A stretch of 64,000 nt of DNA from Anaerolineae bacterium (GTDB lineage: Bacteria > Chloroflexota > Anaerolineae > Anaerolineales > Villigracilaceae), in the NCBI GenBank assembly GCA_018648685.1, contig JABGQT010000140.1, positions 19,920-83,919 on the forward strand, in the 5' to 3' direction. Under the pieces are notes generated by a model. That model saw nothing but the letters and a program-made list of their open reading frames with translations. It did not search any database and had not been told where the DNA came from. Of this stretch, positions 37,251 through 57,237 are shown one piece after another; within the stretch, counting starts at the first letter, position 1; every line of letters starts with the position of its first letter. The translations under genes and the position numbers were made by a program.

Positions 37251-39179
37251 ATGTCTGTATACCTCCACGATATTCCCCTCGATAAAGCTAAAGCCGCGCT
37301 CAAAGAAGCTCTGCAAAATGCTGATTTATGGCGCGTGCTGGCAACTGAAAATATCCCCCTCGGCGAAAATGCGCTTGGGCGCGTTCTCTCCGAGCCGATT
37401 TGGGCGAAGGTCTCCTCGCCGCATTATCATGCCTCCGCGATGGACGGATTTGCCGTCCACGCAAAGGATACAGCTGGTGCAACTCTCACCGCACCGCTCA
37501 CGCTTCAAATCGGTGAAGAAGCTCAATATGTTGATACCGGCGATCCGCTGCCTGATGGTTTCAATGCCGTCATCATGATCGAAGAAACCGAAGCGCTCGA
37601 TGCCAATGGCGAGATTACACCCGCCATTCGTGAGCCGAAAACCATCCGCATCCGCGCCGCTGTCGCACCGTGGAAACACGTTCGTCCGCTCGGTGAAGAT
37701 ATTGTCGCCACACAGCTTGTTCTCCCAGCTGGGCATATTTTGCGCCCCGTCGATTTGGGCGCAATTGCCGCTTCGGGGCATACTGAAATCCCCGTTTCTC
37801 CCAAGCCCCGCGTTGCCATTTTGCCCACTGGCACCGAACTGGTCGAAATCGGCTCTGAACTCAAGCGCGGCGATATTCTCGAATATAACTCTCTTGTTTT
37901 GGCGGCGCAAATCAAAAAGTGGGGCGGTCTCGCTACTCGTTTCCCCATCACGATTGATGATTTTGACCTGATCGCAGAGCGTGTAGCCGAAGCCGCTCGT
38001 GAGCATGACCTGATTTTGCTCAACGCAGGTTCATCGGCGGGCGCGGAAGATTTCTCCGCAAGCGTCGTCGAAAGACTTGGCACGCTTTTAGTTCACGGCG
38101 TTGCCGTTCGCCCGGGGCATCCTGTGATTATCGGGATGATAGAAAACAAACCCATTATCGGGATGCCGGGATACCCCGTCTCGGCTGCGCTGACGGGAGA
38201 AATTTTTGTCGAAGAAATGATCGCGAAATGGACGGGACGCACGCCAATTGAGCTTGCTACCGTTAAAGCAGAATTGACCCGAAAAACAACATCCCCCGCT
38301 GGAGACGACGACTACATCCGCATGGCAGTTGGGCGTGTCGGCGAGCGGATGCTGGCTGCGCCGCTTAATCGTGGTGCTGGCGTGATTTCCTCCCTCGTCC
38401 GTGCAGATGGTTTGGCAATTATGCCGCGCGGCACGCAAGGCGCAGAAGCTGGTGACAGCGTAGACATTCATCTTTATCGTTCTCCCGCTGAATTGGAGCG
38501 GACGATTTTTTGCATCGGTTCGCACGATATGACTCTCGATCTCTTGGCGCAATATCTCTCCCAGCGTGGAAGACGTTTGGTCTCGTCGAATGTTGGGTCG
38601 TTGGGAGGTTTGGTTGCGTTGAAGCGGGGAGAAGCGCATCTTGCCGGGTCGCATTTGCTGGACCCTGTCACAGGGATTTATAACGATGCTTATATTGCGA
38701 AGTATTTGGCGGAAACACCTGTCCAGCAGGTGATGTTGGTTAATCGGGAGCAAGGTTTAATTATCCCAAGGGCGAACCCGAAAAATATTCGAGCGTTGGA
38801 AGATGTCGCTAAGCCGGGCATCCAATTTGTTAACCGTCAGCGCGGTGCGGGAACACGCGTCCTGTTGGATTATCATTTAAACTTATTGGGGATAGCACCA
38901 GAGCAGGTTCTTGGCTATAATAACGAAGAATTTACTCATTTGGGTGTGGCAGCGGCTGTCGCTTCGGGACGCGCAGATTGCGGTTTGGGGATCGCTGCTG
39001 CAGCACAAGCTCTTGATCTGGATTTTCTACCTCTGTTTCAGGAGCGTTATGAGTTGATTATTCCTGATATTTATTTTGAAAGCCCTCTTTTGACTCCGCT
39101 TTTCGAAATAATTGAGAGAGAAGATTTCAGAAAAACTGTCGCAAATATGCCCGGCTATAGCTTTGGAGAAGAAATATGA
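37251..39179 (+). CDS. MoeA fused to a C-terminal periplasmic-binding-protein-like (molybdate/tungstate-binding type) domain
   Basis: 642 aa. The first ~410 aa are MoeA-like (SAMDGFAV, PTGTE, NAGSSAG, PGYPVSA). The last ~230 aa resemble the PBP-like domain seen in MoeA/ModE fusions. Confidence 0.75.
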   Translation: MSVYLHDIPLDKAKAALKEALQNADLWRVLATENIPLGENALGRVLSEPIWAKVSSPHYHASAMDGFAVHAKDTAGATLTAPLTLQIGEEAQYVDTGDPLPDGFNAVIMIEETEALDANGEITPAIREPKTIRIRAAVAPWKHVRPLGEDIVATQLVLPAGHILRPVDLGAIAASGHTEIPVSPKPRVAILPTGTELVEIGSELKRGDILEYNSLVLAAQIKKWGGLATRFPITIDDFDLIAERVAEAAREHDLILLNAGSSAGAEDFSASVVERLGTLLVHGVAVRPGHPVIIGMIENKPIIGMPGYPVSAALTGEIFVEEMIAKWTGRTPIELATVKAELTRKTTSPAGDDDYIRMAVGRVGERMLAAPLNRGAGVISSLVRADGLAIMPRGTQGAEAGDSVDIHLYRSPAELERTIFCIGSHDMTLDLLAQYLSQRGRRLVSSNVGSLGGLVALKRGEAHLAGSHLLDPVTGIYNDAYIAKYLAETPVQQVMLVNREQGLIIPRANPKNIRALEDVAKPGIQFVNRQRGAGTRVLLDYHLNLLGIAPEQVLGYNNEEFTHLGVAAAVASGRADCGLGIAAAAQALDLDFLPLFQERYELIIPDIYFESPLLTPLFEIIEREDFRKTVANMPGYSFGEEI

Positions 39180-39541
39180 AGGAAGCCCTTGTAATTGACG
39201 ATAATCGTAAAACAGCAGACGCTCTTGTAGAGATGGTGAGCCTTTTGGGTGTCGCAGCACGTCCGGCTTATGGTTCAAGCCCTGCGATGGCTTTGCTTGG
39301 AGAACATACGCCTTCTTTGATTTTATTAGATGTGAATATGCCCGGCGTAGACGGTTTTGAGATCTTGGCTTATTTGCGCCGTGAGCCGCGCCTGATGAAT
39401 GTGCCTGTGATCGTGGTTACTTCTGACGATCAGCCAGAAACAAGAAAGCGTGTAATGGATGGTGGCGCAGAGACGATGATTATAAAACCAGCCTCTCTTC
39501 ATCAATTGGAAAGTGCTTTAAGGGACACTGGCGTTTTGTAG
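39176..39541 (+). CDS. Single-domain response regulator (receiver only)
   Basis: 121 aa with the DD pair, phospho-acceptor context (LILLDVNMPGVDG), VVTS and KP. The start overlaps the previous stop (ATGA). Confidence 0.85.
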   Translation: MKEALVIDDNRKTADALVEMVSLLGVAARPAYGSSPAMALLGEHTPSLILLDVNMPGVDGFEILAYLRREPRLMNVPVIVVTSDDQPETRKRVMDGGAETMIIKPASLHQLESALRDTGVL

Positions 39542-41309: not shown

Positions 41310-42197
41310 ATGCATATTGCAAAAATTTTACAAAAACCGGGTCTTCATTTTAGCTTTGAATTTTTCCCGCCAAAGACGCAAAAGACCTCTGATGAGCTTT
41401 TTCAGTCGATGAAGGAATTGTCATCTATTGGTCCAGCTTATGTTAGTGTGACTTATGGTGCAGGTGGTTCAACACGTGATTTGACGCATGATCTTATTGC
41501 GCGGGTTCGTAACGAGACGGATTTGACAGTTGTCGCTCATCTGACGACTATTGGCGCGACGCGAGGGGAACTTCACGATATCTTGCAAGAATACGCTGAT
41601 TGCGGACTTGACAATATCATGGCGTTACGCGGTGATCCTCCTAAAGGTTCGCCAGGTTTTATTCAGCCAAAAGATGGGTTTCGCTATGCAGCAGATTTAG
41701 TAGCTTATATCAAAAAGCATTTCCCGCAAATGGGTGTTGGTGTAGCCGGGTTTCCGGAAGGGCATCCTGAAACCCCAAATCGCCTAAAGGAGATGGATCA
41801 TCTGAAAGCCAAAGTAGATGCTGGCGCAGATTATATTTGTACGCAGCTCTTTTTTCAGAATAGAGATTATTATGATTTTCGTGATCGCTGTGAAATGTCA
41901 GGCATCAATGTTCCGATTATTGCTGGGATTATGCCGATCATTTCGCGAAAAGGTATGAAGCGTATTTCAGAATTAGCTTTAGGTTCACGAATCCCTGCCA
42001 AATTGCAGCGAGCAGTTATGCGTGCTTATGATGATGATGCGGTTGCGAAGGTTGGCATTCACTGGGCTACGCAGCAGGTTTTTGGTTTATTTGATCGTGG
42101 TGTAACAGGTATTCATTTTTATACGCTGAATCGTTCAAAGCCAACTTTGAAAATATATGATGCGCTGGGGATTAAGTCGGAGAATAAACCGAAATAG
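41310..42197 (+). CDS. metF: Methylenetetrahydrofolate reductase, conventional MetF type
   Basis: 295 aa with SFEFFPPKT, VTYGAGGST and ALRGD blocks. Confidence 0.9.
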   Translation: MHIAKILQKPGLHFSFEFFPPKTQKTSDELFQSMKELSSIGPAYVSVTYGAGGSTRDLTHDLIARVRNETDLTVVAHLTTIGATRGELHDILQEYADCGLDNIMALRGDPPKGSPGFIQPKDGFRYAADLVAYIKKHFPQMGVGVAGFPEGHPETPNRLKEMDHLKAKVDAGADYICTQLFFQNRDYYDFRDRCEMSGINVPIIAGIMPIISRKGMKRISELALGSRIPAKLQRAVMRAYDDDAVAKVGIHWATQQVFGLFDRGVTGIHFYTLNRSKPTLKIYDALGIKSENKPK

Positions 42198-43605: not shown

Positions 43606-44001
43606 ATGACAGTACTAACCCTTGATCTCCCGGCTATGTATGGCGATCATCACGTTGTTGAAGTCAGGCGTATTTTGCTTGACCTCGATGGCGTGGAGGA
43701 AGTTTACGCTAGTAGCGGATTTCATGCTGCGGAGATCACCTACAACGCGAAGAAGATAACGAAAAAGGATATAGTGTCAAAGCTTGAGGAAGCCGGCTAT
43801 ATTGGTGAGTTATTTATTCCCCAAGAGACGGGGATTCCCGTCAACCAGGGGAATGGCAGCGCGGATACTTATTATCGACATACAGAGGCATACGCGCAGA
43901 CCGGCAAAGTTGTTAGTTTTGAGCAAGAGGTCGGGCACGGAGGGCGCGGTCTTTGGCCCTGCCCTGGCATGACCCCAATTACCAGTATGGATGAGGAGTA
44001 A
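43606..44001 (+). CDS. HMA-like (ferredoxin-fold) small protein with GDHH in place of the CxxC metal loop, plus a His/Cys-containing tail
   Basis: 131 aa with a strong AAGGAGG RBS. LTLDLPAMYGDHHVVEVRRILLDLDGVEEVYAS...ITKKDIVSKLEEAGY follows the HMA beta-alpha-beta-beta-alpha-beta pattern. The tail carries HGGRGLWPCPGM. The gene ends 3 nt before cooS. Confidence 0.55.
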   Translation: MTVLTLDLPAMYGDHHVVEVRRILLDLDGVEEVYASSGFHAAEITYNAKKITKKDIVSKLEEAGYIGELFIPQETGIPVNQGNGSADTYYRHTEAYAQTGKVVSFEQEVGHGGRGLWPCPGMTPITSMDEE

Positions 44002-44004: not shown

Positions 44005-46020
44005 ATGGCTAAAAAAAGACGAACTCCCCAAGAAGCCAGTAAAGATCCAGCAGCGCAGGAATTGTTAATCCGTGCAGATGAGTTGGGTATTGGCACTGCA
44101 TTTACACGTGCTGACGATATGGTTCCCTGCAATATCGGTGCAGCGGGGATGTGCTGCAAGATATGTAGTATGGGACCCTGCCGCTTGACCAAAGATGGGC
44201 AAACGGGCGTTTGTGGGGCGACGCTCGATACGATCCAGGCTCGGAACTTGGTGCGTGCTATCGCTGCCGGAGCGGCTGCCCATTCCGATCATGGGCGCGA
44301 TATGGCCTTTACTTTGAAGGCTGTGGCAAATGGAGAGACAGAAGGTTATGTTCTCCGAGATGTTGCCAAATTACGCACGGTGGCTGCCTTGTACGATATT
44401 CCAGTTGAAGGTCGTTCTCCTGAAGAAGTTGCGAACGATCTGGCTGATCTTTATATTTCCCAATTTGGGCAACAAAGAGGGCGTGTGGTTGTAACCAAAC
44501 GTGCGCCGGAAAAACGCCAGAAGCTATGGGAAGAACAAGGTGTGATCCCGCGCGGTGTTGACCGTGAAGTTGTTGAGGCTTTGCATCGCACACATATTGG
44601 CGATGATCAGGACCCTGAACATCTTATGCAGCACGCCGTTCGCACATCTCTTGCAGATGGATGGGGCGGTAGCCTGATCGCTACTGATGTATCCGATATT
44701 CTTTTTGGAACGCCAGCCCCTGTTTTAGGGCAAGCCAATTTAGGCGTTTTAAGAGATGACTATGTGAATGTGGTCGTTCATGGGCACGAGCCGACTCTCA
44801 GTGAAATGATTGTTGCGGCATCTCAAACGCCTGAGATCATTGCATACGCTAAAGAAGCCGGCGCACAAGGCGTTCAACTTTCTGGTATTTGTTGTACAGC
44901 TAACGAAATCCTGATGCGACAGGGTATCCCCGCTGCCGGGAATTTCTTGCAGCAAGAGTTAGCAATTTTGACTGGCGCGGTCGAAGCGATGGTTGTTGAC
45001 GTACAGTGCATTATGCAGGCATTGGTTGGCTTGGCTGATAATTTCCACACAGACATCATCACAACTTCGAAAAAAGTCAAGATCAAGGGTGCTACGCATA
45101 TCGAATTTGATGAGCATAAGGCTCTGACCATTGCCAAAGATATTTTGCGCCACGCGATTGATAATTATAAGAATCGCGGTGAAGTGCAAATCCCTGACCA
45201 TCGTACAGATTTGGTGCCGGGTTTCTCACACGAATATATCAACTATATGCTTGGCGGCTCTTATAGAGCTTCCTTCCGCCCACTCAACGATGCGATTATG
45301 TCCGGGCGTATTCGCGGTGTTGCTGCGATCGTCGGATGCAATAATCCGCGCAGTCAACATGACCATTTGCATACTTATGTTACAAAAGAATTGCTCAAGC
45401 AGGATGTCTTGATCGTCGAGACAGGCTGTGGCGCAATTGCTTGTGCGAAAGAAGGTCTGCTGCTCGGCGAAGCAGGTTTGGATAAAGTCGGACCCGGATT
45501 AAAAGAAGTCTGCGAAACCATCGGCATTCCGCCTGTACTGCACATGGGATCATGTGTTGACAACACCCGCATTTTGACGGTGCTTACCCAAGTTGTTGCT
45601 GAGGGCGGTCTCGGAGATGATATTGACCAGGTTCCCGCTGTGGGCTTGGCACCAGAGTGGATGAGCGAGAAAGCGCTCTCCATCGGCACTTATTGTGTCG
45701 CTTCTGGCGCTTACGTCATCTTTGGCGGCAATTCGCCCGTCAGCGGTATGCCAGATCGAGTATCCGATAGCGACCTTGTGACGAAGATCATCGGCGAAGG
45801 CTGGGAAGAGTTATACGGCGGCAAGCTGGAATTCATTCCCGAGCCTGATAAAATGATCGAAGCTACGCTGGCGCATATTGATAAAAAGCGTGCCGATCTT
45901 GGATTGCCAGAATATGACCCCGAGAAATTTGGTCAAAGTGGTGACGCTCGCATGTTGGAATTGGAAGAACTCCCACTCGCAGAACGCCGAGAATCCATCT
46001 ACGGCGCAGCAGCAGATTAG
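44005..46020 (+). CDS. cooS: Anaerobic Ni-dependent carbon monoxide dehydrogenase catalytic subunit (CooS/AcsA)
   Basis: 671 aa with the N-terminal Cys cluster (CNIGAAGMCCKICSMGPCR), HGHEP and C-cluster blocks (SGICCT, GCNN, HMGSCVDN). Confidence 0.95.
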   Translation: MAKKRRTPQEASKDPAAQELLIRADELGIGTAFTRADDMVPCNIGAAGMCCKICSMGPCRLTKDGQTGVCGATLDTIQARNLVRAIAAGAAAHSDHGRDMAFTLKAVANGETEGYVLRDVAKLRTVAALYDIPVEGRSPEEVANDLADLYISQFGQQRGRVVVTKRAPEKRQKLWEEQGVIPRGVDREVVEALHRTHIGDDQDPEHLMQHAVRTSLADGWGGSLIATDVSDILFGTPAPVLGQANLGVLRDDYVNVVVHGHEPTLSEMIVAASQTPEIIAYAKEAGAQGVQLSGICCTANEILMRQGIPAAGNFLQQELAILTGAVEAMVVDVQCIMQALVGLADNFHTDIITTSKKVKIKGATHIEFDEHKALTIAKDILRHAIDNYKNRGEVQIPDHRTDLVPGFSHEYINYMLGGSYRASFRPLNDAIMSGRIRGVAAIVGCNNPRSQHDHLHTYVTKELLKQDVLIVETGCGAIACAKEGLLLGEAGLDKVGPGLKEVCETIGIPPVLHMGSCVDNTRILTVLTQVVAEGGLGDDIDQVPAVGLAPEWMSEKALSIGTYCVASGAYVIFGGNSPVSGMPDRVSDSDLVTKIIGEGWEELYGGKLEFIPEPDKMIEATLAHIDKKRADLGLPEYDPEKFGQSGDARMLELEELPLAERRESIYGAAAD

Positions 46021-46031: not shown

Positions 46032-49000
46032 ATGTCAAAATATATTGCAACTCGTGCGATACGCGGTGCTAATTCCTTAGTTGTTGAAGCGGAGACGATG
46101 CTTCAACAGGCACTTGCAGAAAAAGGCCCCGATACAGTCGTGGAATTTCCTAATACCGCTTATTTCCTGCCGACCATTTTTGCGATGACGGGTATGGAAA
46201 TTGAAACTCTGGGGCAACTTGGAGATGCGTTAAACCATGCTCGTTCTCTTTTGCATCCTATCCCCGCTGATAATCATTGGACTCCCTATCTTGGAGAAAC
46301 TCTTGATAGCGGCATGGCAACGCTTTTGGCTGCCGAGATCATTGAAGCCATTCGTTTTATTTATGGCTTGCAACCAGAACCCTTCCCCGGGATTGAACTG
46401 ACCGGCGGCACAGCCTACCCCGAACTTGATAACGGTGGTGGACCTGCTGGGCATCTCAATGGTCCGATTGATGATATTCAATTACGTTCCTGGGGCATCC
46501 AATTGGTCGATGGTCGTATGCCCGGCTTCGCCGCCATCGTTGGCGCAGCCAAAGATAATAAAACGGCTGTCAAGATCGTGCGCGAGCTTCAACAGCGCAA
46601 TATCCTGGTTTTCCTCTCTGGTAATGTAAATGGACGCAGTATTATCCATCAATTGCAGGAAGAAGGAATTGAACTCGGCTACGATACATACACAATCCCC
46701 TTCGGCACGGATACGATCAGTGCCATCTACGCATTGGGATTTGCTGCTCGTTCAGCATTAACCTTTGGCGGTATTGATGCAGGTCAGGCACGCGATATTT
46801 TGCTCTATAACAAGAAGCGCGTTTTTGCTTTTGTGCTGGCTCTAGGTGAAGTCGATGACCTTAAATACGCCGCTGCTGCGGGAGCGATCAACTTTGGCTT
46901 CCCTGTTATTGCGGATACTGTTATTCCCGAGATTTTGCCCACAGGCGTGACGGATTATGAGCACGTTATCTCCATGCCTTTTGAAGAGATCGAAGGCGCA
47001 GATGATATGGAACGTGCTGAACGCCTTGTGCAAAAATGCATCGAAGTACGCGGTGTCAAGATCAAGATGACCGAAGTGCCTGTCCCCATTCCTTACGGCT
47101 CAGCTTTCGAAGGTGAAGTTGTCCGCAAAAACGATATGCGCGTTGAATTTGGTGGCAAATACTCCCGCTGTTTCGAGTTCCTACAGATGAAAGATATGGA
47201 CGAAGTCACCGATGGCGTTGTTCAAATCATTGGCCCCAATTTTGATGATCTCAAAGACAAAGGTGCTATGGACTTAGGCATCGTTGTCGAAGTGGCTGGG
47301 CGAAAATTACAGGAGGATTTCGAACCTGTACTTGAACGCCAAATTCACTATTTCGTCAATGGCGGCTCTGGCTTACAACATATTGGTCAGCGAGATATTG
47401 CCTGGATACGAATCTCCACAGAAGCTGTTGAAAAAGGCTTCACGCTAGAGCATATTGGCACAATTCTTCATGCTCGCTTACATGCAGAATTTGGCACGAT
47501 CATTGATAAAGTGAAAGTTACTTTATATACCGACCCGGATAAAGTGACCGAATGGCTGGAAAAAGCCCGCGAAGCCTATGATTTCCGCAATAAACGTCTG
47601 GCAGACCTGACAGATAACGCTGTTGATGAATTCTACTCTTGTACACTCTGTCAATCCTTTGCCCCCAACCATGTCTGCATCGTCAGCCCGGAACGTCTCG
47701 GTCTTTGTGGCGCGTATAACTGGCTGGACTGCAAAGCATCCTTCAGCATCAATCCCACAGGCCCCAACCAGCCCATTCAGCTTGGTAAATTAATTGATCC
47801 CGAAATTGGTTATTGGTCGGGCACGCTCGACTATGCCAACGTCGGCTCTCATGGTGTGATAACGGACATCTCCATGTATTCCATCATGGAAAACCCGATG
47901 ACAGCTTGTGGTTGTTTTGAGTGCATCGTCATGTACGTCCCCGAAGTCGAAGGTGTTTTCATTGTCAGCCGAGAAGATACCGGCATGACCCCGATGGGCA
48001 TGAAATTCTCCACGCTGGCAGGTATGGCTGGCGGTGGTATGCAAACCCCCGGTGTGATGGGCATTGGTAAATTCTACCTAATTAGCCCCAAATTCATCTC
48101 AGCAGATGGCGGTTTTAAACGTGTCGTCTGGATGAGCAAGAATCTCAAAGACAGCATGAGCGCCGAATTCCAGGGCGTTGCCGACCGTGAAGGCATCCCT
48201 GATTTGATCGAGCGTATCGCTGATAGCGAAAATGTCACCACCGTTGAAGAACTGGTCGAATGGGTGAAAGAAAAAGATCACCCCGTGCTGGATATGGGAC
48301 CGATGGTCGCCAAATCTGCGCGTGTTGATGGTGCGGATGATGTGATTGCCCAAGCTAAAGCCGTCGTTGAAGCGGCTGTGGCAAAAGAAGAAATCCCAGC
48401 AGCGGATGTGGAGCCGGAACCCTCTCAACCGGAACCTGCTCCGGTTGTGGAAACACCGCCTGCCTCGAAAGTGGTGAAGCAACCCAGCGTCCAAGCAGAA
48501 TCCGGTTCACTCGAAGATAGAGTCGATAGACTGGAGCGTTCCGTCAAGACTCTGATCGGATCACTGGTTGGCGCACTAGCAGAACTTGGCGGGGATGTCC
48601 CCGAAGTTCAAATCGCCCCACAAGCAGCGCCCGTTGCAGTAGCTCCTATCCAGAAAATCGAAGCAGAAGCGCCGCCAAAAATTGAACTTGCCCCAGATAA
48701 ACCCTGGCTTACGGATGACACCAAAACAGAAATTCTCAAAGAAAATTGGACAGGTGTCGTGCGCGAAATCCAGATCGGCGCAACCGCAGCGGATGGCGGC
48801 ACGCGTACTAGCATTGCTAAAGTGGGCGGCGAAACAGCCATGCCCTTCATGGATTTTGAAGGCGCAATGCCCAATAAGCCGCTGATCGCGATAGAGATCA
48901 AAGATCGTCGTCCCGATGATTGGTCAGAATTGCTCTTGAAAGAATGGGGCGATGCCCTGAACGATCCCGGAACCTGGGCGAAAGCCGCTGAAGAAGCTGG

Positions 49001-49682
49001 CGCAGATCTGCTCCAAATGACTCTTTCACTGACCGATGTTGATGGAAATCCGACCAAACCAGAAGCTGCCGTCGCCGCTGTCCGCAAAGTGCTGGATACG
49101 ACAGGATTGCCGCTAATGGTCTTTGGCCCCGGGCAAGTTGATATTGATAACGAATTGATGGTGCCAATCGCTGATGCTTTCAAGGGCGAACGTTTGCTCC
49201 TGGGTCTCTGCGAAGATAAAAACTATCGCACGATAGTCGCTTCTGCGATGGCAAATGGTCATCTGGTCAATGCCCGCACCGCGATGGATGTCAACTTAGC
49301 AAAACAACTTAACATCCTGATAAACGATATGGGTCTCCCGCTGGATCGCATCATTATGGATCCGACCACAGGCGCACTGGGCTATGGCTTTGAGTATGGC
49401 TATTCGGTCATGGAGCGCTTACGGATGGCAGCATTGCAAGGCGACAGCATGACCCAGATGCCAATGTTAGTCACGCCCGGCGAAGAATGCTGGAAGACCA
49501 AAGAAGCAAAGGTTGGCACCGATATTCCCGAAACCTGGGGTGATTGGCTTGAACGCTCAATTACCTGGGAAACACTAACCTCGGTGATGCTCCTCGAAGC
49601 AGGCGCCGATATTGTCACCTTAAGGCATCCCGAAAGCCTGCGGCGTACAGGTCAAGCGATTAATGATCTGATGGGAAAGTAA
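46032..49682 (+). CDS. acsB: Acetyl-CoA synthase AcsB fused through a ~140-aa linker to an AcsD-like (corrinoid Fe-S protein small subunit) domain
   Basis: Uninterrupted 1216-aa ORF. Residues 1 to ~760 are collinear with AcsB and carry the A-cluster motifs (CTLCQSFAPNHVCIV, LCGA, ACGCFEC). Residues ~900-1216 match AcsD/CdhD-type TIM-barrel blocks (KVGGETAMPF, NILINDMGLPLDRIIMDPTTGALGYGFEY, VTLRHPES). Confidence 0.9.
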   Translation: MSKYIATRAIRGANSLVVEAETMLQQALAEKGPDTVVEFPNTAYFLPTIFAMTGMEIETLGQLGDALNHARSLLHPIPADNHWTPYLGETLDSGMATLLAAEIIEAIRFIYGLQPEPFPGIELTGGTAYPELDNGGGPAGHLNGPIDDIQLRSWGIQLVDGRMPGFAAIVGAAKDNKTAVKIVRELQQRNILVFLSGNVNGRSIIHQLQEEGIELGYDTYTIPFGTDTISAIYALGFAARSALTFGGIDAGQARDILLYNKKRVFAFVLALGEVDDLKYAAAAGAINFGFPVIADTVIPEILPTGVTDYEHVISMPFEEIEGADDMERAERLVQKCIEVRGVKIKMTEVPVPIPYGSAFEGEVVRKNDMRVEFGGKYSRCFEFLQMKDMDEVTDGVVQIIGPNFDDLKDKGAMDLGIVVEVAGRKLQEDFEPVLERQIHYFVNGGSGLQHIGQRDIAWIRISTEAVEKGFTLEHIGTILHARLHAEFGTIIDKVKVTLYTDPDKVTEWLEKAREAYDFRNKRLADLTDNAVDEFYSCTLCQSFAPNHVCIVSPERLGLCGAYNWLDCKASFSINPTGPNQPIQLGKLIDPEIGYWSGTLDYANVGSHGVITDISMYSIMENPMTACGCFECIVMYVPEVEGVFIVSREDTGMTPMGMKFSTLAGMAGGGMQTPGVMGIGKFYLISPKFISADGGFKRVVWMSKNLKDSMSAEFQGVADREGIPDLIERIADSENVTTVEELVEWVKEKDHPVLDMGPMVAKSARVDGADDVIAQAKAVVEAAVAKEEIPAADVEPEPSQPEPAPVVETPPASKVVKQPSVQAESGSLEDRVDRLERSVKTLIGSLVGALAELGGDVPEVQIAPQAAPVAVAPIQKIEAEAPPKIELAPDKPWLTDDTKTEILKENWTGVVREIQIGATAADGGTRTSIAKVGGETAMPFMDFEGAMPNKPLIAIEIKDRRPDDWSELLLKEWGDALNDPGTWAKAAEEAGADLLQMTLSLTDVDGNPTKPEAAVAAVRKVLDTTGLPLMVFGPGQVDIDNELMVPIADAFKGERLLLGLCEDKNYRTIVASAMANGHLVNARTAMDVNLAKQLNILINDMGLPLDRIIMDPTTGALGYGFEYGYSVMERLRMAALQGDSMTQMPMLVTPGEECWKTKEAKVGTDIPETWGDWLERSITWETLTSVMLLEAGADIVTLRHPESLRRTGQAINDLMGK

Positions 49683-49697
49683 CGAGTTGAAAATTAC

Positions 49698-49729
49698 AGG
49701 TTGCAGGTTAAAGATTTGACCTGCAACCT
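49698..49729 (+). other. Intercistronic hairpin after the acsB-acsD fusion
   Basis: AGGTTGCAGGT pairs with ACCTGCAACCT (11 bp, 10-nt loop). It is flanked by GTTGAA on the left and three TTCAAC words on the right. Confidence 0.7.
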
Positions 49730-49767
49730 TTCAACCTTCAACTTTCAACGATATTTGGAGAAAAAAC

Positions 49768-51099
49768 ATGGCACTATCAGGTATTGAAATTTATAAAATG
49801 CTCCCGCAGACGAATTGCAAGGAATGTGATTTTCCGACCTGTTTAGCATTCGCAATGAAGCTGGCAGCCAAACAAGTCGAATTGTCCTTGTGTCCTCACG
49901 TCAGCGAAGAATCGAAAGCCTTGCTTTCTGAAGCCGCTGCACCCCCTGTGCGCCCATTTGCGCTCAAGTCGAATGGATACGAAGCCAAAGCGGGCAACGA
50001 GGTTGTCCTCTTCCGTCACGAAAAAACCTTTTACAGTCGCCCCGGACTTTTTGTGCGAGTCTATGATTCGCAAAGCCAAGAAGAGATCAAAAACAAAGTC
50101 GCACCAGCCGATGCCTATGTCGTTGACTATGTTGGCATCGAACTGGAAATGGGCGGATTTGTCGTTCAGGCAGATGGCGGCGATTTTGCTAAAGCTGTTA
50201 GCGCGGTGCGAGAAGTTAGTCATCGTCCGCTTATTTTGATCGGTGAGCCAGCCCAACTCAAAGCTGGTTTGGCTGCGCTTAATGGGGATGAGAAAGTGAT
50301 GTTGGCTCATGCCACAGCCGAGAATTGGGAAGAAATGGCAGCGTTGGCAAAAGAATACGATGCCGCTCTTGCTATTGAAGCTGATTCCGTTGATGGAATG
50401 GTATCTCTATCCGAACAGGCACAGGGTGCCGGAGTCAAAGACATTGTCCTTTCGCCTACGCAGCGTGGCTTCCGTGGCACGCTCACGGCAAATACCGTTG
50501 CCCGACGCATGGCGCTTAAGAAGAACTTCCGTCCGCTCGGATTCCCGATCATCAGCTTTCCTGGCGATATTGGCGATGCAAATCGTGAAGCCACTTTGGC
50601 GGCGCAAGCTATCGGTAAATATAGCGGCTTTATCGTGCTGGATCATTTCTCGCCTGAAGTCGCTTACGCTCTCTTGGTCTTGCGAGAGAATATCTACACC
50701 GATCCGCAAAAACCGATTCAAGTGCAACCCGGCGTTTACGAGATCAACGATCCCGGCCCTGATTCACCCGTTCTTGTCACGACCAATTTCAGCATCACCT
50801 ATTTCAGCGTTGCCAACGAAGTCGAAAGCTCTGGGAATCCCTCCTGGCTATTGGTAACAGAATCTGAGGGTATGAGCGTGCTAACGGCTTGGGCGGCTGG
50901 CAAATTTGACGCAGAAGTGATAGCGAAAGATGTCAAACGCTTTGAAGTTGCCGATAAGGTCGACAAAAGAAATATCGTTCTGCCCGGTCACACAGCTGTA
51001 CTTTCCGGCGAGCTTGAAGAAGAACTCCCCGATTGGAATGTTCTCGTCGGACCACGCGAGGCAGTGGATATTCCCGCATATCTGAAAACAGTAGCCTAA
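49768..51099 (+). CDS. acsC: Corrinoid iron-sulfur protein large subunit AcsC
   Basis: 443 aa with the N-terminal [4Fe-4S] motif (CKECDFPTCLAFAMKLA...CP) and a C-terminal B12-binding Rossmann-like part. Confidence 0.9.
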   Translation: MALSGIEIYKMLPQTNCKECDFPTCLAFAMKLAAKQVELSLCPHVSEESKALLSEAAAPPVRPFALKSNGYEAKAGNEVVLFRHEKTFYSRPGLFVRVYDSQSQEEIKNKVAPADAYVVDYVGIELEMGGFVVQADGGDFAKAVSAVREVSHRPLILIGEPAQLKAGLAALNGDEKVMLAHATAENWEEMAALAKEYDAALAIEADSVDGMVSLSEQAQGAGVKDIVLSPTQRGFRGTLTANTVARRMALKKNFRPLGFPIISFPGDIGDANREATLAAQAIGKYSGFIVLDHFSPEVAYALLVLRENIYTDPQKPIQVQPGVYEINDPGPDSPVLVTTNFSITYFSVANEVESSGNPSWLLVTESEGMSVLTAWAAGKFDAEVIAKDVKRFEVADKVDKRNIVLPGHTAVLSGELEEELPDWNVLVGPREAVDIPAYLKTVA

Positions 51100-51190: not shown

Positions 51191-53119
51191 ATGGCTGAAC
51201 ACATCGTAAAATTTGATATTGCATCTGAGCCAGTCAGCGTGCCCACAGGCACTTTGATCTCTGAAGCTGCTGAGAAAGTTGGTATAGAAATTAATCAACC
51301 CTGCGGCGGGCAAGGGCGTTGCGGGCGTTGCGCTGTCATCGTCACTAAAGGGGATGCTGGCATACGCCGTCGTAGTGCTTTGCGCCTATCTGCTGAAGAT
51401 ATTAAAACTGGCTACGCCTTAGCATGCCAATCCGTGATCGAGGGAGATGTCGAGATCACTGTACCGCCTCAGGAGAAAATTCAGCGTCGCTTAACCACAG
51501 ATCGTACTGTTGGCAAAGTTGCTCTGCCTGTTGGCTATGATCCGCAACAAGGGCAGACCATTCGGCGAGTTAGGCTTAGTTTGCCTCCCCCGAGCATGAG
51601 TGACCAAACTGATGACTGGAGTCGTTTACAGACCGCATTGCGCAAAGAAACCGGTATTCCAAAATTGCAAACATCTCTTGAATCTATCCGAAATATCGGC
51701 TCTACCTTCCGAGAGAAGGATTGGCAGGTTACTGCAACGCTCATTTCAAAAACCTGGGATTGCCCCGATTGCCCAGCGCAATTATTGACTCTCACCTCAG
51801 GTCATTTAGAGGAAGATGCTCCTCTTTGGGGCGTGGCAATAGATATTGGCACAACCACCGTCTCGGTTTGGATGGTTGAGTTGCTGACAGGAGAAGTAAA
51901 GGCACAGGTTGCTGAATATAACCAGCAAATCTCACGGGGCGAGGATGTTATTTCTCGCATTATTGTTGCCAGCAAAGATGGTGGCAGTGAAAAAATGCGA
52001 GATCTGGTTGTGGGCACGATCAATGATTTGCTCGTACGGGTTTGCAAACGGCTGGGTGCCAAAACAAAGGAGATCATGAAAGCGACGATCTCTGGTAATA
52101 GCACCATGATGCATCTCCTGTTGGGAATTCCCGCAACGAGTATTCGGCTCTCGCCCTTTGTGACGGCCGCTAACCACATCCCGACCTTAAATGCTGTGGA
52201 TGTGGGCTTGGACATTCATCCGCAGGCAATTGTTGATTGTTTGCCCGGCGTTGCCAGTTATGTCGGTGCAGATATTAGTGCCGGTGTACTCTCGTCGGGG
52301 ATGACGGATTCAGAGGATATGGTCCTCTTCCTGGATGTTGGTACCAATGGAGAAACGGTTCTCGGCTCAAAGGATTGGCTCGTGACTTGCGCCTGTTCAG
52401 CTGGTCCCGCTTTTGAAGGTGCCGGGGTCTTATACGGGATGCGTGCTACCAAAGGCGCGATCGAAGAAGTTTGGGTTAACGGTGAAACGCATGAGCCGAC
52501 CTTCCGTGTCATAGGCGGTAGCAAGCCAGAGGGCATGTGCGGCAGCGGTTTGATATCCCTCCTGGCAGAGATGTTTTTAACAGGCGTGGTTGATAAGGGG
52601 GGCAAGGTGAATACGAAACTTCCTACATCACGCACACGGGATGGTGAGCATGGTGGGGAGTATGTTGTCTTTTGGGCAGCTGAAACCAGTGCCGGAGAAG
52701 ATATCGTCATCACTAATGTTGATATTGACAATCTCTTGCGTGCCAAAGCTGCGATTTATGCTGGATTTGCTGTTCTGGCTGAGAATGTTGGTGTTACGCT
52801 GGATATGGCTACGCAGGTTTTGATTGGCGGCTCATTTGGCAAATATATCAATGTTGAAAAAGCAGTTGAGATCGGTTTGTTGCCTGACCTGCCTTGGGAT
52901 CGCTTCCAGTTTTTGGGCAATACCTCTGTACAAGGCGCTTATCTGGCATTGATCGATCACGAAGCGCGCAACCGTATTAAAGAGATTGCCGCAAGTATGA
53001 CCTATATTGAGTTATCGGCTGATAATAAATTCTATGATGCATTTATGTCGGCGCTGTTCTTACCACACACAGATTTGAGTTTGTTCCCCTCTGTGGCAAA
53101 GGTAATAGAAGATAAATAA
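51191..53119 (+). CDS. Reductive activator of the corrinoid Fe-S protein (RACo/AcsV-type, ASKHA ATPase with an N-terminal [2Fe-2S] ferredoxin domain)
   Basis: 642 aa with CGGQGRCGRCAV...LACQS. The ASKHA-type blocks IDIGTTT and LDVGTNGE are present. Confidence 0.85.
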   Translation: MAEHIVKFDIASEPVSVPTGTLISEAAEKVGIEINQPCGGQGRCGRCAVIVTKGDAGIRRRSALRLSAEDIKTGYALACQSVIEGDVEITVPPQEKIQRRLTTDRTVGKVALPVGYDPQQGQTIRRVRLSLPPPSMSDQTDDWSRLQTALRKETGIPKLQTSLESIRNIGSTFREKDWQVTATLISKTWDCPDCPAQLLTLTSGHLEEDAPLWGVAIDIGTTTVSVWMVELLTGEVKAQVAEYNQQISRGEDVISRIIVASKDGGSEKMRDLVVGTINDLLVRVCKRLGAKTKEIMKATISGNSTMMHLLLGIPATSIRLSPFVTAANHIPTLNAVDVGLDIHPQAIVDCLPGVASYVGADISAGVLSSGMTDSEDMVLFLDVGTNGETVLGSKDWLVTCACSAGPAFEGAGVLYGMRATKGAIEEVWVNGETHEPTFRVIGGSKPEGMCGSGLISLLAEMFLTGVVDKGGKVNTKLPTSRTRDGEHGGEYVVFWAAETSAGEDIVITNVDIDNLLRAKAAIYAGFAVLAENVGVTLDMATQVLIGGSFGKYINVEKAVEIGLLPDLPWDRFQFLGNTSVQGAYLALIDHEARNRIKEIAASMTYIELSADNKFYDAFMSALFLPHTDLSLFPSVAKVIEDK

Positions 53120-53173: not shown

Positions 53174-54097
53174 ATGTATATCATTGGCGAAAACATCCAC
53201 ATTATTTCACCCGCAGTAAAAGTAGCCTTGAAAGAACGAGATGGCGAGTATTTCAAAAAAGCCGCTCTTCAACAAGTTGAGGCGGGTGCGCAATGCGTTG
53301 ACTTAAATCTCGGTCCGCGCAAAAAAGATTGGGAAGAAGTTTTCCCGTGGATGGTAAAAACCGTAGAAGAAGTGGTGGATGTGCCTTTGTGCATCGACAC
53401 CACGAATGTCTTTGGGATGGAAGCGGCTCTCAAGGCGGTTACGAAGGCGCAACCTATTCTTAATTCCACTTCAGCCGAAGCCGAGCGTTTGGAAAAAGTA
53501 CCGGCATTGGCGAAAAAATATAATACTCAGTTGATTGCGCTCACACTTCAAAAAAGCGGTATTCCTGTAAGTTCAGATGAGCGTATCGGGATTGCTTTAG
53601 AGACATTAATTCCCCGCTGTCTTGAATTGGATTTTCCCATTAGCGACTTAATTATTGACCCATTGGTATTGACTGTCTCTGGCTGTCAGGAGTATTGCCC
53701 CGAGTTAATTGAAGCTGTTCGCACAATTCCTTTTGCTTGGGAGCCTGCACCACAGATTTCGATTGGGCTTTCTAATGTTTCTAATGCCGTCCCGACCAAG
53801 AATAGACCGCTTATTAACAGCGTTTATTGCGCGATGGTGATGGGTGCTGGCATTAAGATGATGATCGCTAACCCGCTCGAAGAAGAACTCATGGAAGTCA
53901 TCCGCATCGTTGAGAATCGAGATGAAAGCACAGCGCTCAGCCGTCTTTATCTGAAAATTCATGACCATGTTGAAGCGATGGAAGCCCCCACTCCCGATGG
54001 CGTAGATATGAGTGACCCCGAACAAGCCGCTGTTTGGAAAACGGTGCAGGTTTTGCTGAACAAGGTCATTTACGCGGATTCTTATTTGGAGCAGTGA
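53174..54097 (+). CDS. acsE: Methyltetrahydrofolate:corrinoid/Fe-S protein methyltransferase AcsE
   Basis: 307 aa pterin-binding TIM barrel (IIGENIH, DLNLGP, LCIDTT, LNSTS, GLSNVS). Confidence 0.85.
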   Translation: MYIIGENIHIISPAVKVALKERDGEYFKKAALQQVEAGAQCVDLNLGPRKKDWEEVFPWMVKTVEEVVDVPLCIDTTNVFGMEAALKAVTKAQPILNSTSAEAERLEKVPALAKKYNTQLIALTLQKSGIPVSSDERIGIALETLIPRCLELDFPISDLIIDPLVLTVSGCQEYCPELIEAVRTIPFAWEPAPQISIGLSNVSNAVPTKNRPLINSVYCAMVMGAGIKMMIANPLEEELMEVIRIVENRDESTALSRLYLKIHDHVEAMEAPTPDGVDMSDPEQAAVWKTVQVLLNKVIYADSYLEQ

Positions 54098-54193: not shown

Positions 54194-55690
54194 ATGCCCA
54201 TCTTTACCCCCGGACGTCGTTGGCAACCGCCTTTTTTACCCTTTAAAAAAGAGCCGCTTAATCGCCGCTTGCTCGCAAGCCTTGAGAAAGCCATCAAAGG
54301 ACCCCTCTTTGGCTGCCGCATGTGCGGCAATTGTCTCTTGCAGGAGACAGCTTTTATTTGCCCGATGGAATGTCCAAAGGGCGAGCGGAACGGTCCCTGT
54401 GGTGGCTCGACATCAGAGCATTGTTATGTAGATGAAACGCGCCCCTGCATTTGGTACAAGATTTTTGAACGTTCTTATGATATGGGACGTGAAGAAAAAC
54501 TCCTTGAAGTGCTCCCCCCGCTTGATTGGGATAAAACCGGCACTGAAACCTGGGGCGATGTCTTTGGGCGTATCAAAGAAGTAGGAGCGGGGAAAGTAGC
54601 CAAAGGTTTGTTTTTCCAGCCTCCTGAGGTGCGTTATAAAACTTGGGATCTGGTCTTTGAGCATGTACGCCAGCCAGATTGGTGGGAGGGTGATAATCAA
54701 TATCACGCCCCGGCTTACGAAGAACCTATCTCTGAGCTTGAGCGCCACCTTCGCTCTGGCGAATTTGTGGTCACCTCCGAAGTTGCGCCGCCGATGAGTA
54801 CTGCTACAGGCAAACTCTGTCGCAATACCGAAATGATCGAACCTTATGTGGCAGCGGTCAATTTTACTGATTGTCCTTCGGCAACACCGCGTATGTCCAG
54901 CTTGGCTTGTAGTAAATTGGCAATCGAACATGGGGCAGAGCCGGTTCTCCAGATCGCTGCGCGTGATCGTACTCGCACTGGTTTGCAGGCTGAGATCATC
55001 GGCGCAAGTGCGCTGGGCATCCGCAATGTGCTTTGTCTTTCTGGCGATAGCGCCCGCATGGGGCCCGCCCCAATGGGACGCTCCGACATTCTTGATATTG
55101 ACGCCATTCAAATGCTCTGGATCTTGCGACGCATGCGTGATGAAGGCAAGTATCTCGATGGACGCAATATCAAATTCCGACCACAGCTTTTTCTCGGGGC
55201 TGCCGCTGCTCCTTTTGCGTCAGAACCGAAATATCAGGCGATCCGTGAGCACAAAAAGGTCAATGCTGGGGCGCAATTCTTCCAGACCAATTTGGTTTAC
55301 GATCCTGATGGCATGGAAATCTGGCTCAACGAACTTGCCAAGCGCAATATCCTCGATAAAGTTTATTTGCTGATCGGCATCACCCCACTAAAATCCCTCA
55401 AGATGGCACAATATATGCATAATGATGTGCCCGGTGTAACCATTCCCGAAAAGCTATTGAAACGGATGGAAGCCGCAGGCAAAGATGGCGAAGCCGAAGT
55501 CGGTTTTGAAATCGCACTGGAATTGATCGAGGATATCCGCAAAAAAGAAGGCGTGGATGGTATCCATCTCATGGCAGTTGGCTGGGAAGATATAGTTCCG
55601 CGTCTCATTACCGAAGCTGGCTTGCTACCGCCAAACTTCTTGATGCCCGATCCCAAAGCAGAACCCGCTAAAGTAAAGGTTGCACCGTAG
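54194..55690 (+). CDS. Fusion of a MetV-like Cys-rich domain with a methylenetetrahydrofolate reductase (MetF) domain
   Basis: 498 aa. The N-terminal part is CRMCGNCLLQETAFICPMECPKGERNGPCGG. The C-terminal ~290 aa form an MTHFR TIM barrel (VTSEVAPP, NFTDCP, LCLSGD). Confidence 0.8.
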   Translation: MPIFTPGRRWQPPFLPFKKEPLNRRLLASLEKAIKGPLFGCRMCGNCLLQETAFICPMECPKGERNGPCGGSTSEHCYVDETRPCIWYKIFERSYDMGREEKLLEVLPPLDWDKTGTETWGDVFGRIKEVGAGKVAKGLFFQPPEVRYKTWDLVFEHVRQPDWWEGDNQYHAPAYEEPISELERHLRSGEFVVTSEVAPPMSTATGKLCRNTEMIEPYVAAVNFTDCPSATPRMSSLACSKLAIEHGAEPVLQIAARDRTRTGLQAEIIGASALGIRNVLCLSGDSARMGPAPMGRSDILDIDAIQMLWILRRMRDEGKYLDGRNIKFRPQLFLGAAAAPFASEPKYQAIREHKKVNAGAQFFQTNLVYDPDGMEIWLNELAKRNILDKVYLLIGITPLKSLKMAQYMHNDVPGVTIPEKLLKRMEAAGKDGEAEVGFEIALELIEDIRKKEGVDGIHLMAVGWEDIVPRLITEAGLLPPNFLMPDPKAEPAKVKVAP

Positions 55691-55794: not shown

Positions 55795-56439
55795 ATGGCT
55801 GAAAAAGATTGGTTGCTCGGAGAAACCCCAAATCCCCTGAGTGACCGAGTAGCTGAAATTCGTGAGAAGTTACGAGATAAAAACCCCGAAGAATTGGCTG
55901 CTTATACAGGTGCAACTTATCTAAGTAAAGGGCAAGGTCGTGAGTTTCAGTTGCCTTTTTGGTCACGGGATGTGATCATTAGTTTTCCCGATTTTGTTGG
56001 CTGTGAAGCTGGTTCAGGAGAAGAACTCAACTCCTTTGATATGACTATGTTGGCATATTATTTCGATGTATCAAATAGTGTTCCCCTTGCTGGAGAATGG
56101 ATAGCGTTTAAACAAATTCCCGGCGGCATGTTCTATGCTCAGGCATTTCAGGGATATACGGGAGATAACCTGCTCAAAGTTTTTGGCGATGATCTCGAAG
56201 CTTTCATCAAGGCCAATGAAAAACTTGGCGGACGACGTGAAGTTTTTGGGAATGCAGCTTTTTCTTATCAGATTTTGCCTCATGTTCCTATCATGGTTGT
56301 CTGCTGGCTCGGTGATGAAGATTTTGATTCTTCATATCGAATGCTTTTTGATGCCAGTGCACACCATCATCTGGTTACGGATGCTTATGCTATTTTGGGT
56401 AGTAATCTAACGAAAAAATTGATCAAAGCAAAAGGATAA
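55795..56439 (+). CDS. DUF3786 domain protein (recurrent acs-cluster companion)
   Basis: 214 aa. The family was recognised by eye (FQLPFW, IAFKQIPGG, FDASA..HL blocks). Confidence 0.65.
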   Translation: MAEKDWLLGETPNPLSDRVAEIREKLRDKNPEELAAYTGATYLSKGQGREFQLPFWSRDVIISFPDFVGCEAGSGEELNSFDMTMLAYYFDVSNSVPLAGEWIAFKQIPGGMFYAQAFQGYTGDNLLKVFGDDLEAFIKANEKLGGRREVFGNAAFSYQILPHVPIMVVCWLGDEDFDSSYRMLFDASAHHHLVTDAYAILGSNLTKKLIKAKG

Positions 56440-56444: not shown

Positions 56445-57212
56445 ATGAAATTAGCAATTAGCGGTAAAGGTGGTGTCGGCAAAACGACCCTTTCGGCATT
56501 ACTGGCACAAGCCTACGCCGATATGGGGCGTGATGTTTTAGCGGTTGATGCCGACCCCTCCCCCTGCCTTTCGGGCGCCTTGGGCTTCCCCGATGAAAAA
56601 CTCGCCGAACTCAAACCCATCGCCGAGATGGATGCCCTCATAGAAGAGCGTACCGGCGCAAAACCGGGCACGGTGGGTGGCTTCTTTACCCTCAATCCTC
56701 GTGTAGACGACATCCCAGAACGTTTCAGCGTTATACATAGAAAGGTCCGCCTGCTCGAAATGGGATCTGTAGATTTAGGCGGCTCGGGCTGTATTTGCCC
56801 TGAAGCAGCGATGCTCAAAACCCTATTTACACATTTGATGTTCCGTGATGAAGATGTGCTTATTATGGATATGTATGCCGGCGTGGAGCATCTTGGGCGT
56901 GCTACGGTTGATTTTGTTGAAGCGATGGTCATCGTGGTCGAGCCTACAAGACGTTCACTGGGTACCGCGCGACAGATTAAAAAATTGGCAAATGACATCG
57001 GTCTCGAACGGTTGTGGCTGGTGGGAAATAAAGTTAGAAATGAAGATGAATCTGATTTCCTTGAAAAGGAATCGCCAGGAATTCCTGTGTTAGGATTTTT
57101 GCCTGCTGATTTGCGCGTTCAAGAAGCGGACAGGTTGGGTATTCCCGTTTACGACCATGTTCCGGCCTTGAAAACTGCCGCTGAAGAGATGGCGAAGAAA
57201 TTAGTCAAATGA
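56445..57212 (+). CDS. cooC: CooC-type Ni-insertion ATPase (CODH/ACS maturation)
   Basis: 255 aa with the deviant Walker A (SGKGGVGKTT) and the CxC motif (GCICPE). Confidence 0.9.
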   Translation: MKLAISGKGGVGKTTLSALLAQAYADMGRDVLAVDADPSPCLSGALGFPDEKLAELKPIAEMDALIEERTGAKPGTVGGFFTLNPRVDDIPERFSVIHRKVRLLEMGSVDLGGSGCICPEAAMLKTLFTHLMFRDEDVLIMDMYAGVEHLGRATVDFVEAMVIVVEPTRRSLGTARQIKKLANDIGLERLWLVGNKVRNEDESDFLEKESPGIPVLGFLPADLRVQEADRLGIPVYDHVPALKTAAEEMAKKLVK

Positions 57213-57237
57213 ACAGAAAGCTTTATTGGAGAAATTG

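Follow-up and report, generated by a model that had tools for sequence, protein, structure and literature searches.

Are acetyl-CoA synthase and the small subunit of its corrinoid methyl donor encoded as one polypeptide in an Anaerolineae bacterium, and if so, is their union a maintained feature or an accident? The question arises from a stretch of 64,000 nucleotides of contig JABGQT010000140.1 (assembly GCA_018648685.1, positions 19,920 to 83,919), which we refer to as the window; positions below are counted from its first letter. A single open reading frame at 46032..49682 contains both acsB, the gene of acetyl-CoA synthase (ACS), and acsD, the gene of the small subunit of the corrinoid iron-sulfur protein (CoFeSP), and an earlier note, made from the letters of the window, had read it as an AcsB-AcsD fusion. 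The fusion is genuine and is composed of a complete AcsB, a mostly disordered acidic linker of 139 residues with two conserved helices, and a complete AcsD; we consider it likely that it is selectively maintained, as a putative tether between ACS and CoFeSP.

One reading frame for AcsB, a linker and AcsD

The frame starts with ATG and contains 1216 codons plus a stop codon, with zero internal stops, as the earlier note had described. A Shine-Dalgarno sequence (AGGAGG) is located upstream of the ATG, and 11 nt separate the stop codon of acsA, the preceding gene, from the fusion gene. The parts of the frame are as follows.

46032..49682, + strand: acsB-acsD fusion gene, a single open reading frame with a Shine-Dalgarno sequence
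46032..48308, + strand: AcsB part (residues 1-759), acetyl-CoA synthase with all three domains, A1-A3 (NF040764, Pfam, and solved chains)
47640..47708, + strand: A-cluster [4Fe-4S] and bridging Cys motif, C537-x2-C540-x8-C549-x9-C559
47907..47915, + strand: Cys626-Gly-Cys628, the distal-Ni ligands of the A-cluster
48309..48725, + strand: linker, residues 760-898, 139 aa, between the AcsB and AcsD modules
48726..49679, + strand: AcsD part (residues 899-1216), the whole TIM barrel of the CoFeSP small subunit (NF003376, 4djd_D, and the AlphaFold2 (AF2) model)

Both modules are covered by family models and by solved structures. The earlier note had proposed running the CdhC and CdhD models along the frame, and Pfam places both of them, with CODH_A_N (PF18537) at residues 21-110, CdhC at 351-505, ACS_CODH_B_C at 516-759, and CdhD at 914-1158. 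The NCBIfam AcsB equivalog NF040764 scores 962 bits (cut-off 800) over residues 10-759 and spans profile positions 1-705 of 705. Residues 10-758 match the full ACS chains 1ru3, 1oao, and 6ytt (C. hydrogenoformans, M. thermoacetica, and C. autoethanogenum) with E values from 1e-199 to 1e-186. These solved chains all stop where the linker starts; the AcsB chain of the window does not end after A3 and is followed by 457 further residues. The A1 domain, which interacts with CO dehydrogenase (CODH) and consists of a prismane-like plus a Rossmann part, is present, as seen from the PF18537 match and from the solved-chain alignment starting at residue 10. The A-cluster ligands (C537, C540, C549, C559, and C626-G-C628) are all intact and are invariant across 121 aligned sequences. 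These results agree with the claim that the frame is collinear with ACS up to about position 48308, including the A-cluster Cys motifs, and the complete ligand set predicts that the module is a catalytic ACS.

The identity of the C-terminal part, on which the earlier note had staked the fusion, is also clear. The NCBIfam delta-subunit model NF003376 scores 362 bits (cut-off 280) over residues 899-1214, covering profile positions 3-312 of 313, and the same residues match residues 4-318 of the 323 in Moorella AcsD (4djd_D, E = 6e-88). AcsD is not free-standing here; it is the C-terminal module of the 1216-aa chain. When the AcsB, linker, and AcsD parts were used as tblastn queries, no second acsB or acsD was found in the 64-kb window and the frame alone was recovered, so that the absence of a separate acsD reported earlier stands.

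The linker is much as it was first described, that is, about 140 Pro/Ala/Glu-rich residues with a heptad-like segment. Residues 760-898 contain 17% A, 13% V, 12% P, and 11% E and carry a net charge of -11, and the heptad seam lies at residues 826-854. Searched alone, the linker matched no protein family (Pfam at E <= 10; NCBIfam) and no solved chain. Alignments of 119 linkers and of 24 diverse linkers (A2) reveal a fixed layout: helix 1, a variable Pro/Ala/Glu spacer (spacer 1), helix 2, a second Pro/Ala spacer (spacer 2), and a motif just before the barrel. The three conserved elements are located as follows.

48336..48392, + strand: linker helix 1, DDVIAQAKAVVEAAVAKEE, residues 769-787, with the family motif VIAQAEAVVEAA; conserved in both alignments, helix 768-784 in the AF2 model
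48507..48593, + strand: linker helix 2, residues 826-854, amphipathic with a heptad pattern and LAELGG at its end; helix 827-850 in the AF2 model
48678..48725, + strand: pre-barrel motif KIELAPDKPWLTDDTK, family consensus VELPPDxPWLxxGTK, in which D and W are invariant

In helix 2 (SLEDRVDRLERSVKTLIGSLVGALAELGG, residues 826-854), a clean a/d heptad seam runs through 26 residues, and the hydrophobic moment is 0.51. Two variants of this helix occur across the family, RVDRLERSVKTLIGSLVGALAELGG and DRAERAVDILRRALIAALAELGG, and residues L841, L845, A848, L849, and G853 are invariant in the 24-linker alignment. We compared the window with the closest genome (L001) using the ratio of nonsynonymous to synonymous substitution rates (dN/dS). 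At a dS of about 1, and with few codons in the linker segments, dN/dS is 0.03 for AcsB, 0.05 for AcsD, 0.13 for helix 1, 0.11 for helix 2, 0.14 for the pre-barrel motif, 0.17 for spacer 2, and 0.66 for spacer 1. The linker helices are under purifying selection, and spacer 1 evolves almost freely. The AF2 model of the full-length chain, built with 121 sequences, is mediocre (mean predicted local distance difference test score (pLDDT) 65.5, predicted template modelling score (pTM) 0.41), and its domain arrangement is unreliable; the AcsD module within it has a pLDDT of about 90.

Distribution and origins of the fusion

An identical protein, recorded with three NCBI accessions, is present on 17 contigs from metagenome-assembled Anaerolineae genomes. 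All 120 of the best database relatives (67-100% identity) are fused and contain all four Pfam domains, and their lengths range from 1180 to 1326 aa, except for a single protein of 1723 aa that carries an intein. Scanning the genomes of species representatives gave at least 451 loci with a relative, of which we looked at the best 80; among these, 68 have both modules complete and could be evaluated. The fusion is present in 62 of the 68, with linkers of 124-284 aa that are always in frame. The best 80 loci are nearly all labelled Anaerolineae-type or Chloroflexota, and the groups named include Anaerolineales, Caldilineae, Thermoflexia, Ardenticatenaceae, Promineifilaceae, and Aggregatilineaceae. 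This survey of acsB lengths in relatives, which the earlier note had suggested, indicates that the fusion is the usual state among the relatives recovered and is not peculiar to this genome.

In the other six of the 68, all of them close Anaerolineae relatives, acsB and acsD are genes of their own. In these loci, AcsB ends right after A3, AcsD starts with MP[IV], and the linker is found on neither side. A gene encoding a CBS pair (~150 aa, PF00571, E = 2e-18) lies between acsB and acsD in five of the six. It is found at 5450-5980 in L053 and at the same position in the order of genes in L054, L064, L065, and L078; the gap in L064 measures 1.2 kb and holds more sequence besides. We considered that the linker may have come from, or decayed into, the DNA of the unfused acsB-acsD gap; this idea was rejected, as hmmsearch of three-frame translations with the linker profile gave E > 3. 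In a bootstrapped neighbour-joining (NJ) tree of AcsB, the six unfused proteins are nested inside the fused Anaerolineae clade, which was recovered as a clade in 100/100 bootstraps, and monophyly of the fused proteins only was recovered in 1/100.

These data bear on whether an assembly error, a frameshift, or gene calling merged adjacent acsB and acsD genes in the window. The biased composition of the linker is of a kind that leads assemblers and readers into error, and six relatives really have two genes. However, the 17 contigs and three accessions repeat the identical protein, and a single frame is kept in the 120 best relatives and in the 62 fused genomes through linkers that differ in length and sequence. 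The dN/dS of about 0.1 in the linker helices also speaks against an artefact. Furthermore, the unfused relatives are wholly without a linker, and their gaps hold the CBS-domain gene in five of six cases and yield no linker remnant better than E > 3. We regard an artefact as extremely improbable.

Some loci carry insertions of another kind. Inteins (Intein_splicing plus LAGLIDADG) interrupt AcsB in L045, L069, and L074, whose reading frames are ~1840 aa long, and in the proteins P0106 and P0124. In L045, L069, and L074, the insertion reads FYSCTL|CVPPDQ... and is placed just ahead of the A-cluster Cys that corresponds to C540. A different insertion of ~1.1 kb is located after about residue 680 in L080.

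A second group of fused proteins was found by an exhaustive search of representatives with residues 17-1216 as the query. This search recovered a divergent fused protein (P0122, 47% identity), which is encoded on a contig of 645 kb, where the genes run cooC, acsA, acsBD, acsC, RACo, and DUF3786. Its 120 best relatives are likewise fused without exception (120/120, 1148-1319 aa), and the NCBI names in this second clade include Desulfovibrionaceae, Phycisphaerae, Tepidisphaerales, Lentisphaeria, Victivallales, Spirochaetota, Ca. Aminicenantes, KSB1, and Chitinivibrionales. The domain order is identical in both fused clades. The median linker length is 139 aa in the second clade versus 140 aa in the Anaerolineae clade, and the linker composition is A 17%, E 10%, and P 10% versus A 20%, P 15%, and E 15%. 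The linker of the second clade contains a central amphipathic helix of ~40 residues (...ELK....EIV.EII.TLS.KFLG) and has its own pre-barrel motif. An AF2 model of a protein of this clade (mean pLDDT 76.5) shows disorder, a 43-residue helix, disorder, a short helix, and the barrel, with the linker undocked.

How did two clades come to share this architecture? Comparison of the linker profiles of the two clades by hhalign detected no relatedness (E = 0.46). In the AcsB NJ tree, unfused AcsBs lie between the two fused clades, and joint monophyly was recovered in 0/100 bootstraps. A single origin was rejected on the basis of the dissimilar profiles and the lack of joint monophyly. As judged from these sequence comparisons, it is most likely that two independent fusions, with the same domain order, converged on the same leash-like design. 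We note that the tree is an NJ tree of AcsB only, and therefore the evidence for a double origin is suggestive and is not proof. The alternative history, in which one ancient fusion was followed by several fissions and by complete turnover of the linker, is less simple.

A further divergent AcsB-AcsD fusion was seen as a fragment of 618 aa (P0183). Its linker has GKPKAES-type repeats, and the linker segment TALNLLTAGANMLLMY resembles the AcsD C-terminal helix, which may reflect an internal duplication.

A candidate leash between ACS and CoFeSP

In solved CoFeSP structures, AcsD has no cofactor, and both the corrinoid and the [4Fe-4S] cluster sit on its partner AcsC. Judged by homology to 4djd and 2h9a, the product of acsC, which is separately encoded downstream of the fusion gene, is the expected partner of the fused AcsD. 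The AcsD module would pair with it as in the solved heterodimers, and every ACS active site would bear its own CoFeSP. According to a 2026 preprint (bioRxiv 10.64898/2026.07.07.736967), the small subunit touches ACS directly in the methyl-transfer state. Given this contact, a joint between the C-terminus of A3 and the N-terminus of AcsD would leash CoFeSP to ACS. Such a leash would set a 1:1 stoichiometry of ACS and CoFeSP and would hold the methyl donor beside the A-cluster at a sub-millimolar effective concentration, roughly 0.5 mM by a polymer estimate for ~140 flexible residues. It would also be long enough for CoFeSP to swing over to AcsE, where methyl groups are loaded, and to RACo, which carries out the reductive repair. 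By analogy with 2-oxo-acid dehydrogenases, whose E2 chains have Ala/Pro-rich arms, this would be a swinging-domain arrangement. The conserved amphipathic helix midway along the leash probably serves for docking or for self-association.

Several observations weigh against a maintained fusion that works as a leash. First, the NCBIfam model WLP_AcsD (NF040759) gives the AcsD module 236 bits, under its cut-off of 430, and the module therefore belongs to a delta-subunit subfamily other than that of the Moorella-type reference. Second, the AF2 model leaves the linker at a pLDDT below 50, mostly disordered, and neither of its two helices is docked. Third, the corrinoid is on AcsC and not on AcsD, so a tether can work only via the AcsC:AcsD interface. 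Fourth, since six close relatives carry separate genes, the fusion is dispensable and evolutionarily reversible, unless the base of the clade is poorly resolved in the tree.

The fused gene could also yield separate AcsB and AcsD proteins in the cell, either by proteolysis of the linker or by internal initiation of translation. Long disordered Ala/Pro-rich linkers are accessible to proteases, and limited proteolysis resolves the acetyl-CoA decarbonylase/synthase complex of archaea (ACDS) into subcomplexes (bioRxiv 10.64898/2026.07.07.736967). However, the fusion frame offers no in-frame ATG, GTG, or TTG from residue 840 to residue 909, so that separate initiation of AcsD is not possible. The nearest later candidate is a GTG at residue 910, which has no Shine-Dalgarno sequence and lies within the AcsD domain. 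Moreover, a linker that is discarded would not keep two helices and a pre-barrel motif under purifying selection, and two clades would not converge on one linker layout. Separation of the two proteins is therefore very unlikely in our view.

Another explanation is a passive 'Rosetta-stone' fusion, which would provide co-expression and equal stoichiometry only, with helices that do no more than maintain the solubility or spacing of the linker. Interacting subunits are often fused, and AcsA-AcsB, AcsD-AcsA, and Pyr_redox_2-AcsB fusions occur in this family, as does the mthfr/acsD fusion of Desulfurivibrio alkaliphilus (PMC5016858). The existence of unfused close relatives and the nearly neutral spacer 1 (dN/dS 0.66) are also in line with a passive joint. 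On the other hand, one face of helix 2 is invariant across the 24 diverse linkers, and a passive joint would be expected to shrink, while two independent clades keep ~140 residues and a central amphipathic helix. We think that a passive fusion is unlikely, although it deserves more weight than separate proteins or an artefact, and we favour a selectively maintained fusion that may act as a leash.

Gene cluster and relation to known systems

The fusion gene lies in a complete carbonyl-branch operon with the order HMA-domain protein, acsA, acsB-acsD, acsC, RACo/acsV, acsE, a MetV-MetF-like gene, DUF3786, and two cooC genes; metF and a DUF166 gene are located upstream of the operon. As the earlier note had stated, acsC follows as its own gene (49768-51099, NF003195). 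The neighbouring genes are listed below.

41310-42197: metF, separate and canonical
43606..44001, + strand: HMA-domain protein, 131 aa, directly upstream of acsA (Pfam)
44005..46020, + strand: acsA, Ni-CODH catalytic subunit (TIGR01702, 614 bits, cut-off 478)
49768..51099, + strand: acsC, CoFeSP large subunit with an FeS domain, a TIM barrel, and a corrinoid domain (NF003195, 502 bits, cut-off 306; Pfam FeS and CdhD)
51191..53119, + strand: acsV/RACo, reductive activator of CoFeSP (Pfam RACo domains; NF040756, 637 bits, under the cut-off of 800)
53174..54097, + strand: acsE, methyl-H4folate:CoFeSP methyltransferase (Pterin_bind; NF005719, 218 bits, under the cut-off)
54194-55690: MetV-MetF-like gene, a 498-aa chain with a methylenetetrahydrofolate reductase (MTHFR) C-terminal (MetV-type, DUF5981) domain and an MTHFR domain
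55795-56439, + strand: DUF3786 gene
56445-57212 and 57226-58023, + strand: two CooC/AcsF-type P-loop maturation ATPases

Several features of these neighbours were observed along the way. The position of the HMA-domain protein is kept in the relatives examined, and this protein may have a role in metal delivery. The 498-aa chain at 54194-55690 looks like a MetV-MetF fusion, which would be a second fusion in the same gene cluster. The gap between acsB-acsD and acsC (49683-49767, 85 nt) folds into a hairpin of 14 perfectly paired bp (-29 kcal/mol, z = -5.75), which no U-run follows. In L001, L003, L005, L006, L008, L012, L015, L041, L052, and L072, the same gap holds a hairpin that is just as strong and is unrelated in sequence, and L024, L053, and L078 have no hairpin there. 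The hairpin may act between the cistrons as a stabiliser of the mRNA or as an attenuator, setting the acsBD:acsC ratio. AcsE has ~45 extra C-terminal residues (about 262-307) past the NCBIfam methyltransferase models, ending in the amphipathic segment AAVWKTVQVLLNKVIYADSYLEQ. We considered this extension as a partner of helix 2 and dropped the idea: unfused relatives have the extension as well (AcsE aligned over 1-307), so it does not correlate with the fusion. Further upstream, 37251-39179 encodes a 642-aa protein with MoeA domains I-IV and a C-terminal PBP_like substrate-binding domain, followed by a single-domain response regulator at 39176-39541.

The fusion is apparently an undescribed variant of a well-known complex, real and conserved and abundant in databases. 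We found no description of an AcsB-AcsD fusion in the literature searched, though an earlier mention in Adam et al. 2018 is possible; that PNAS paper is said to be the main comparative study of these gene clusters. The public annotation of the fused proteins reads just 'subunit beta' or 'alpha/beta', and pathway surveys that look for a separate acsD would therefore score these Anaerolineae-type genomes and many other phyla as lacking acsD.

Cryo-EM structures of this ancient enzyme date from 2024-2026, and active structural questions include how CoFeSP shuttles its methyl group among methyltransferase, A-cluster, and repair protein, and how the open and closed states of ACS are coordinated. 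A scaffold model of the archaeal complex comes from the 2026 preprint, the available part of which surveys ACS architectures and does not mention an AcsB-AcsD fusion (bioRxiv 10.64898/2026.07.07.736967). The fusion is relevant to such work in several ways. A stoichiometric single-chain sample of ACS and CoFeSP should ease trapping of the methyl-transfer state, and in the fused sequences AcsB and AcsD are paired by nature, so that their alignment can serve to analyse co-evolution at the interface of the two. The fusion also exposes a conserved linker helix as a candidate for partner binding. If the double origin is true, covalent holding of ACS and CoFeSP was chosen at least twice in evolution. 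The likely double origin with a convergent leash, together with the bearing on current structural work, raises the significance of the fusion.

The closest known systems are the bacterial CODH/ACS and CoFeSP of M. thermoacetica, C. hydrogenoformans, and C. autoethanogenum (1oao, 1ru3, 6ytt, 9fzy, 4djd, and 2h9a). They have the same three-domain AcsB, the same A-cluster ligands, and the same AcsD barrel, and they share the co-encoded partners AcsA, AcsC, AcsE, RACo, and CooC with this cluster. In those systems, AcsB (chains of 708-734 aa) and AcsD (309-323 aa) are separate and meet transiently, whereas here they form one chain of 1216 aa, and the 139-aa linker has no counterpart in any solved chain.

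The archaeal ACDS (CdhABCDE) resembles the fusion in another respect. As described in the preprint, disordered regions keep CoFeSP and ACS together, and an amphipathic helix lies N-terminal to the delta barrel; a Leu-zipper at CdhD 45-68 forms hexamers or octamers and thereby oligomerises archaeal CoFeSP, and conservation of the disordered region at the N-terminus of CdhD does not extend to bacterial AcsD (bioRxiv 10.64898/2026.07.07.736967). A similar layout is met here, with the amphipathic heptad helix 826-854 inside a low-pLDDT stretch N-terminal to the delta barrel. The link in ACDS is non-covalent and its ACS has no A1, in contrast to the covalent link and the A1 domain of the fusion. 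Homology of the linker to the archaeal CdhC C-terminal tail plus the CdhD N-terminal helix was considered and found to be unsupported. The idea arose from run-on alignments, in which NF003379 extended to residue 786 and NF003375 started from residue 880 at profile position 87. Searches with the linker alone, the hhalign comparison (E = 0.56), and the CdhC alignment ending at residue 753 gave it no support.

This comparison raises the possibility that the fusion is mainly a scaffold, in which helix 2 self-associates as a coiled coil or binds another subunit and assembles a supercomplex of CODH/ACS and CoFeSP, functionally like archaeal ACDS. The 26-residue a/d heptad seam and the hydrophobic moment of helix 2 would suit this role, as would its location in a disordered stretch N-terminal to the delta barrel, the same place as the Leu-zipper of CdhD. 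The AF2 model of the monomer leaves the helix undocked, which is also compatible with a scaffold. Against it, hhalign of the linker profile with the CdhD 43-88 peptide gave a probability of 0.1% (E = 0.56), in a test of low power, as the comparison was with one peptide of 46 aa. Searched by itself, the linker gave no match to any CdhC or CdhD model, and the phmmer alignment to archaeal CdhC (9c0s_E) ends at residue 753. In addition, helix 2 contains Gly and is short for a stable coiled coil. We thus hold the scaffold explanation to be doubtful, about on a par with a passive fusion. The idea that two bacterial lineages converged independently on a covalent version of the archaeal principle, with disordered tethers and a helix by the delta subunit, is attractive and likewise tentative; we would not expect it to be correct.

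Other fusions of Wood-Ljungdahl proteins offer a further comparison. Among the representatives, we observed AcsA-AcsB (1375 aa), AcsD-AcsA (1122 aa), and Pyr_redox_2-AcsB (1024 aa) chains (P0134, P0141, P0269, P0129, P0219, P0221, P0231, and P0236). An AcsD with a C-terminal extension of ~200 aa also occurs among them and may be the mthfr/acsD fusion of Desulfurivibrio alkaliphilus. That fusion is the nearest mention found in the literature (PMC5016858). AcsD and AcsB recur in these chains, fused to neighbouring genes of the pathway; the partners and the order of domains are not those seen here, and none of the chains joins ACS to the corrinoid protein.

The design of the linker can finally be compared with the swinging arms of 2-oxo-acid dehydrogenases. 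In E2 chains, Ala/Pro-rich linkers flank a small helical peripheral-subunit-binding domain. The linker of the fusion contains no match to the E3_binding or lipoyl domain families in Pfam at E <= 10, and the likeness is an analogy of layout: in both cases, Ala/Pro/Glu-rich spacers flank a short conserved helix, and the tethered modules visit, or in the fusion would visit, several active sites. The two differ in cargo, as E2 arms carry a lipoyl domain and the candidate leash carries a whole TIM-barrel subunit.

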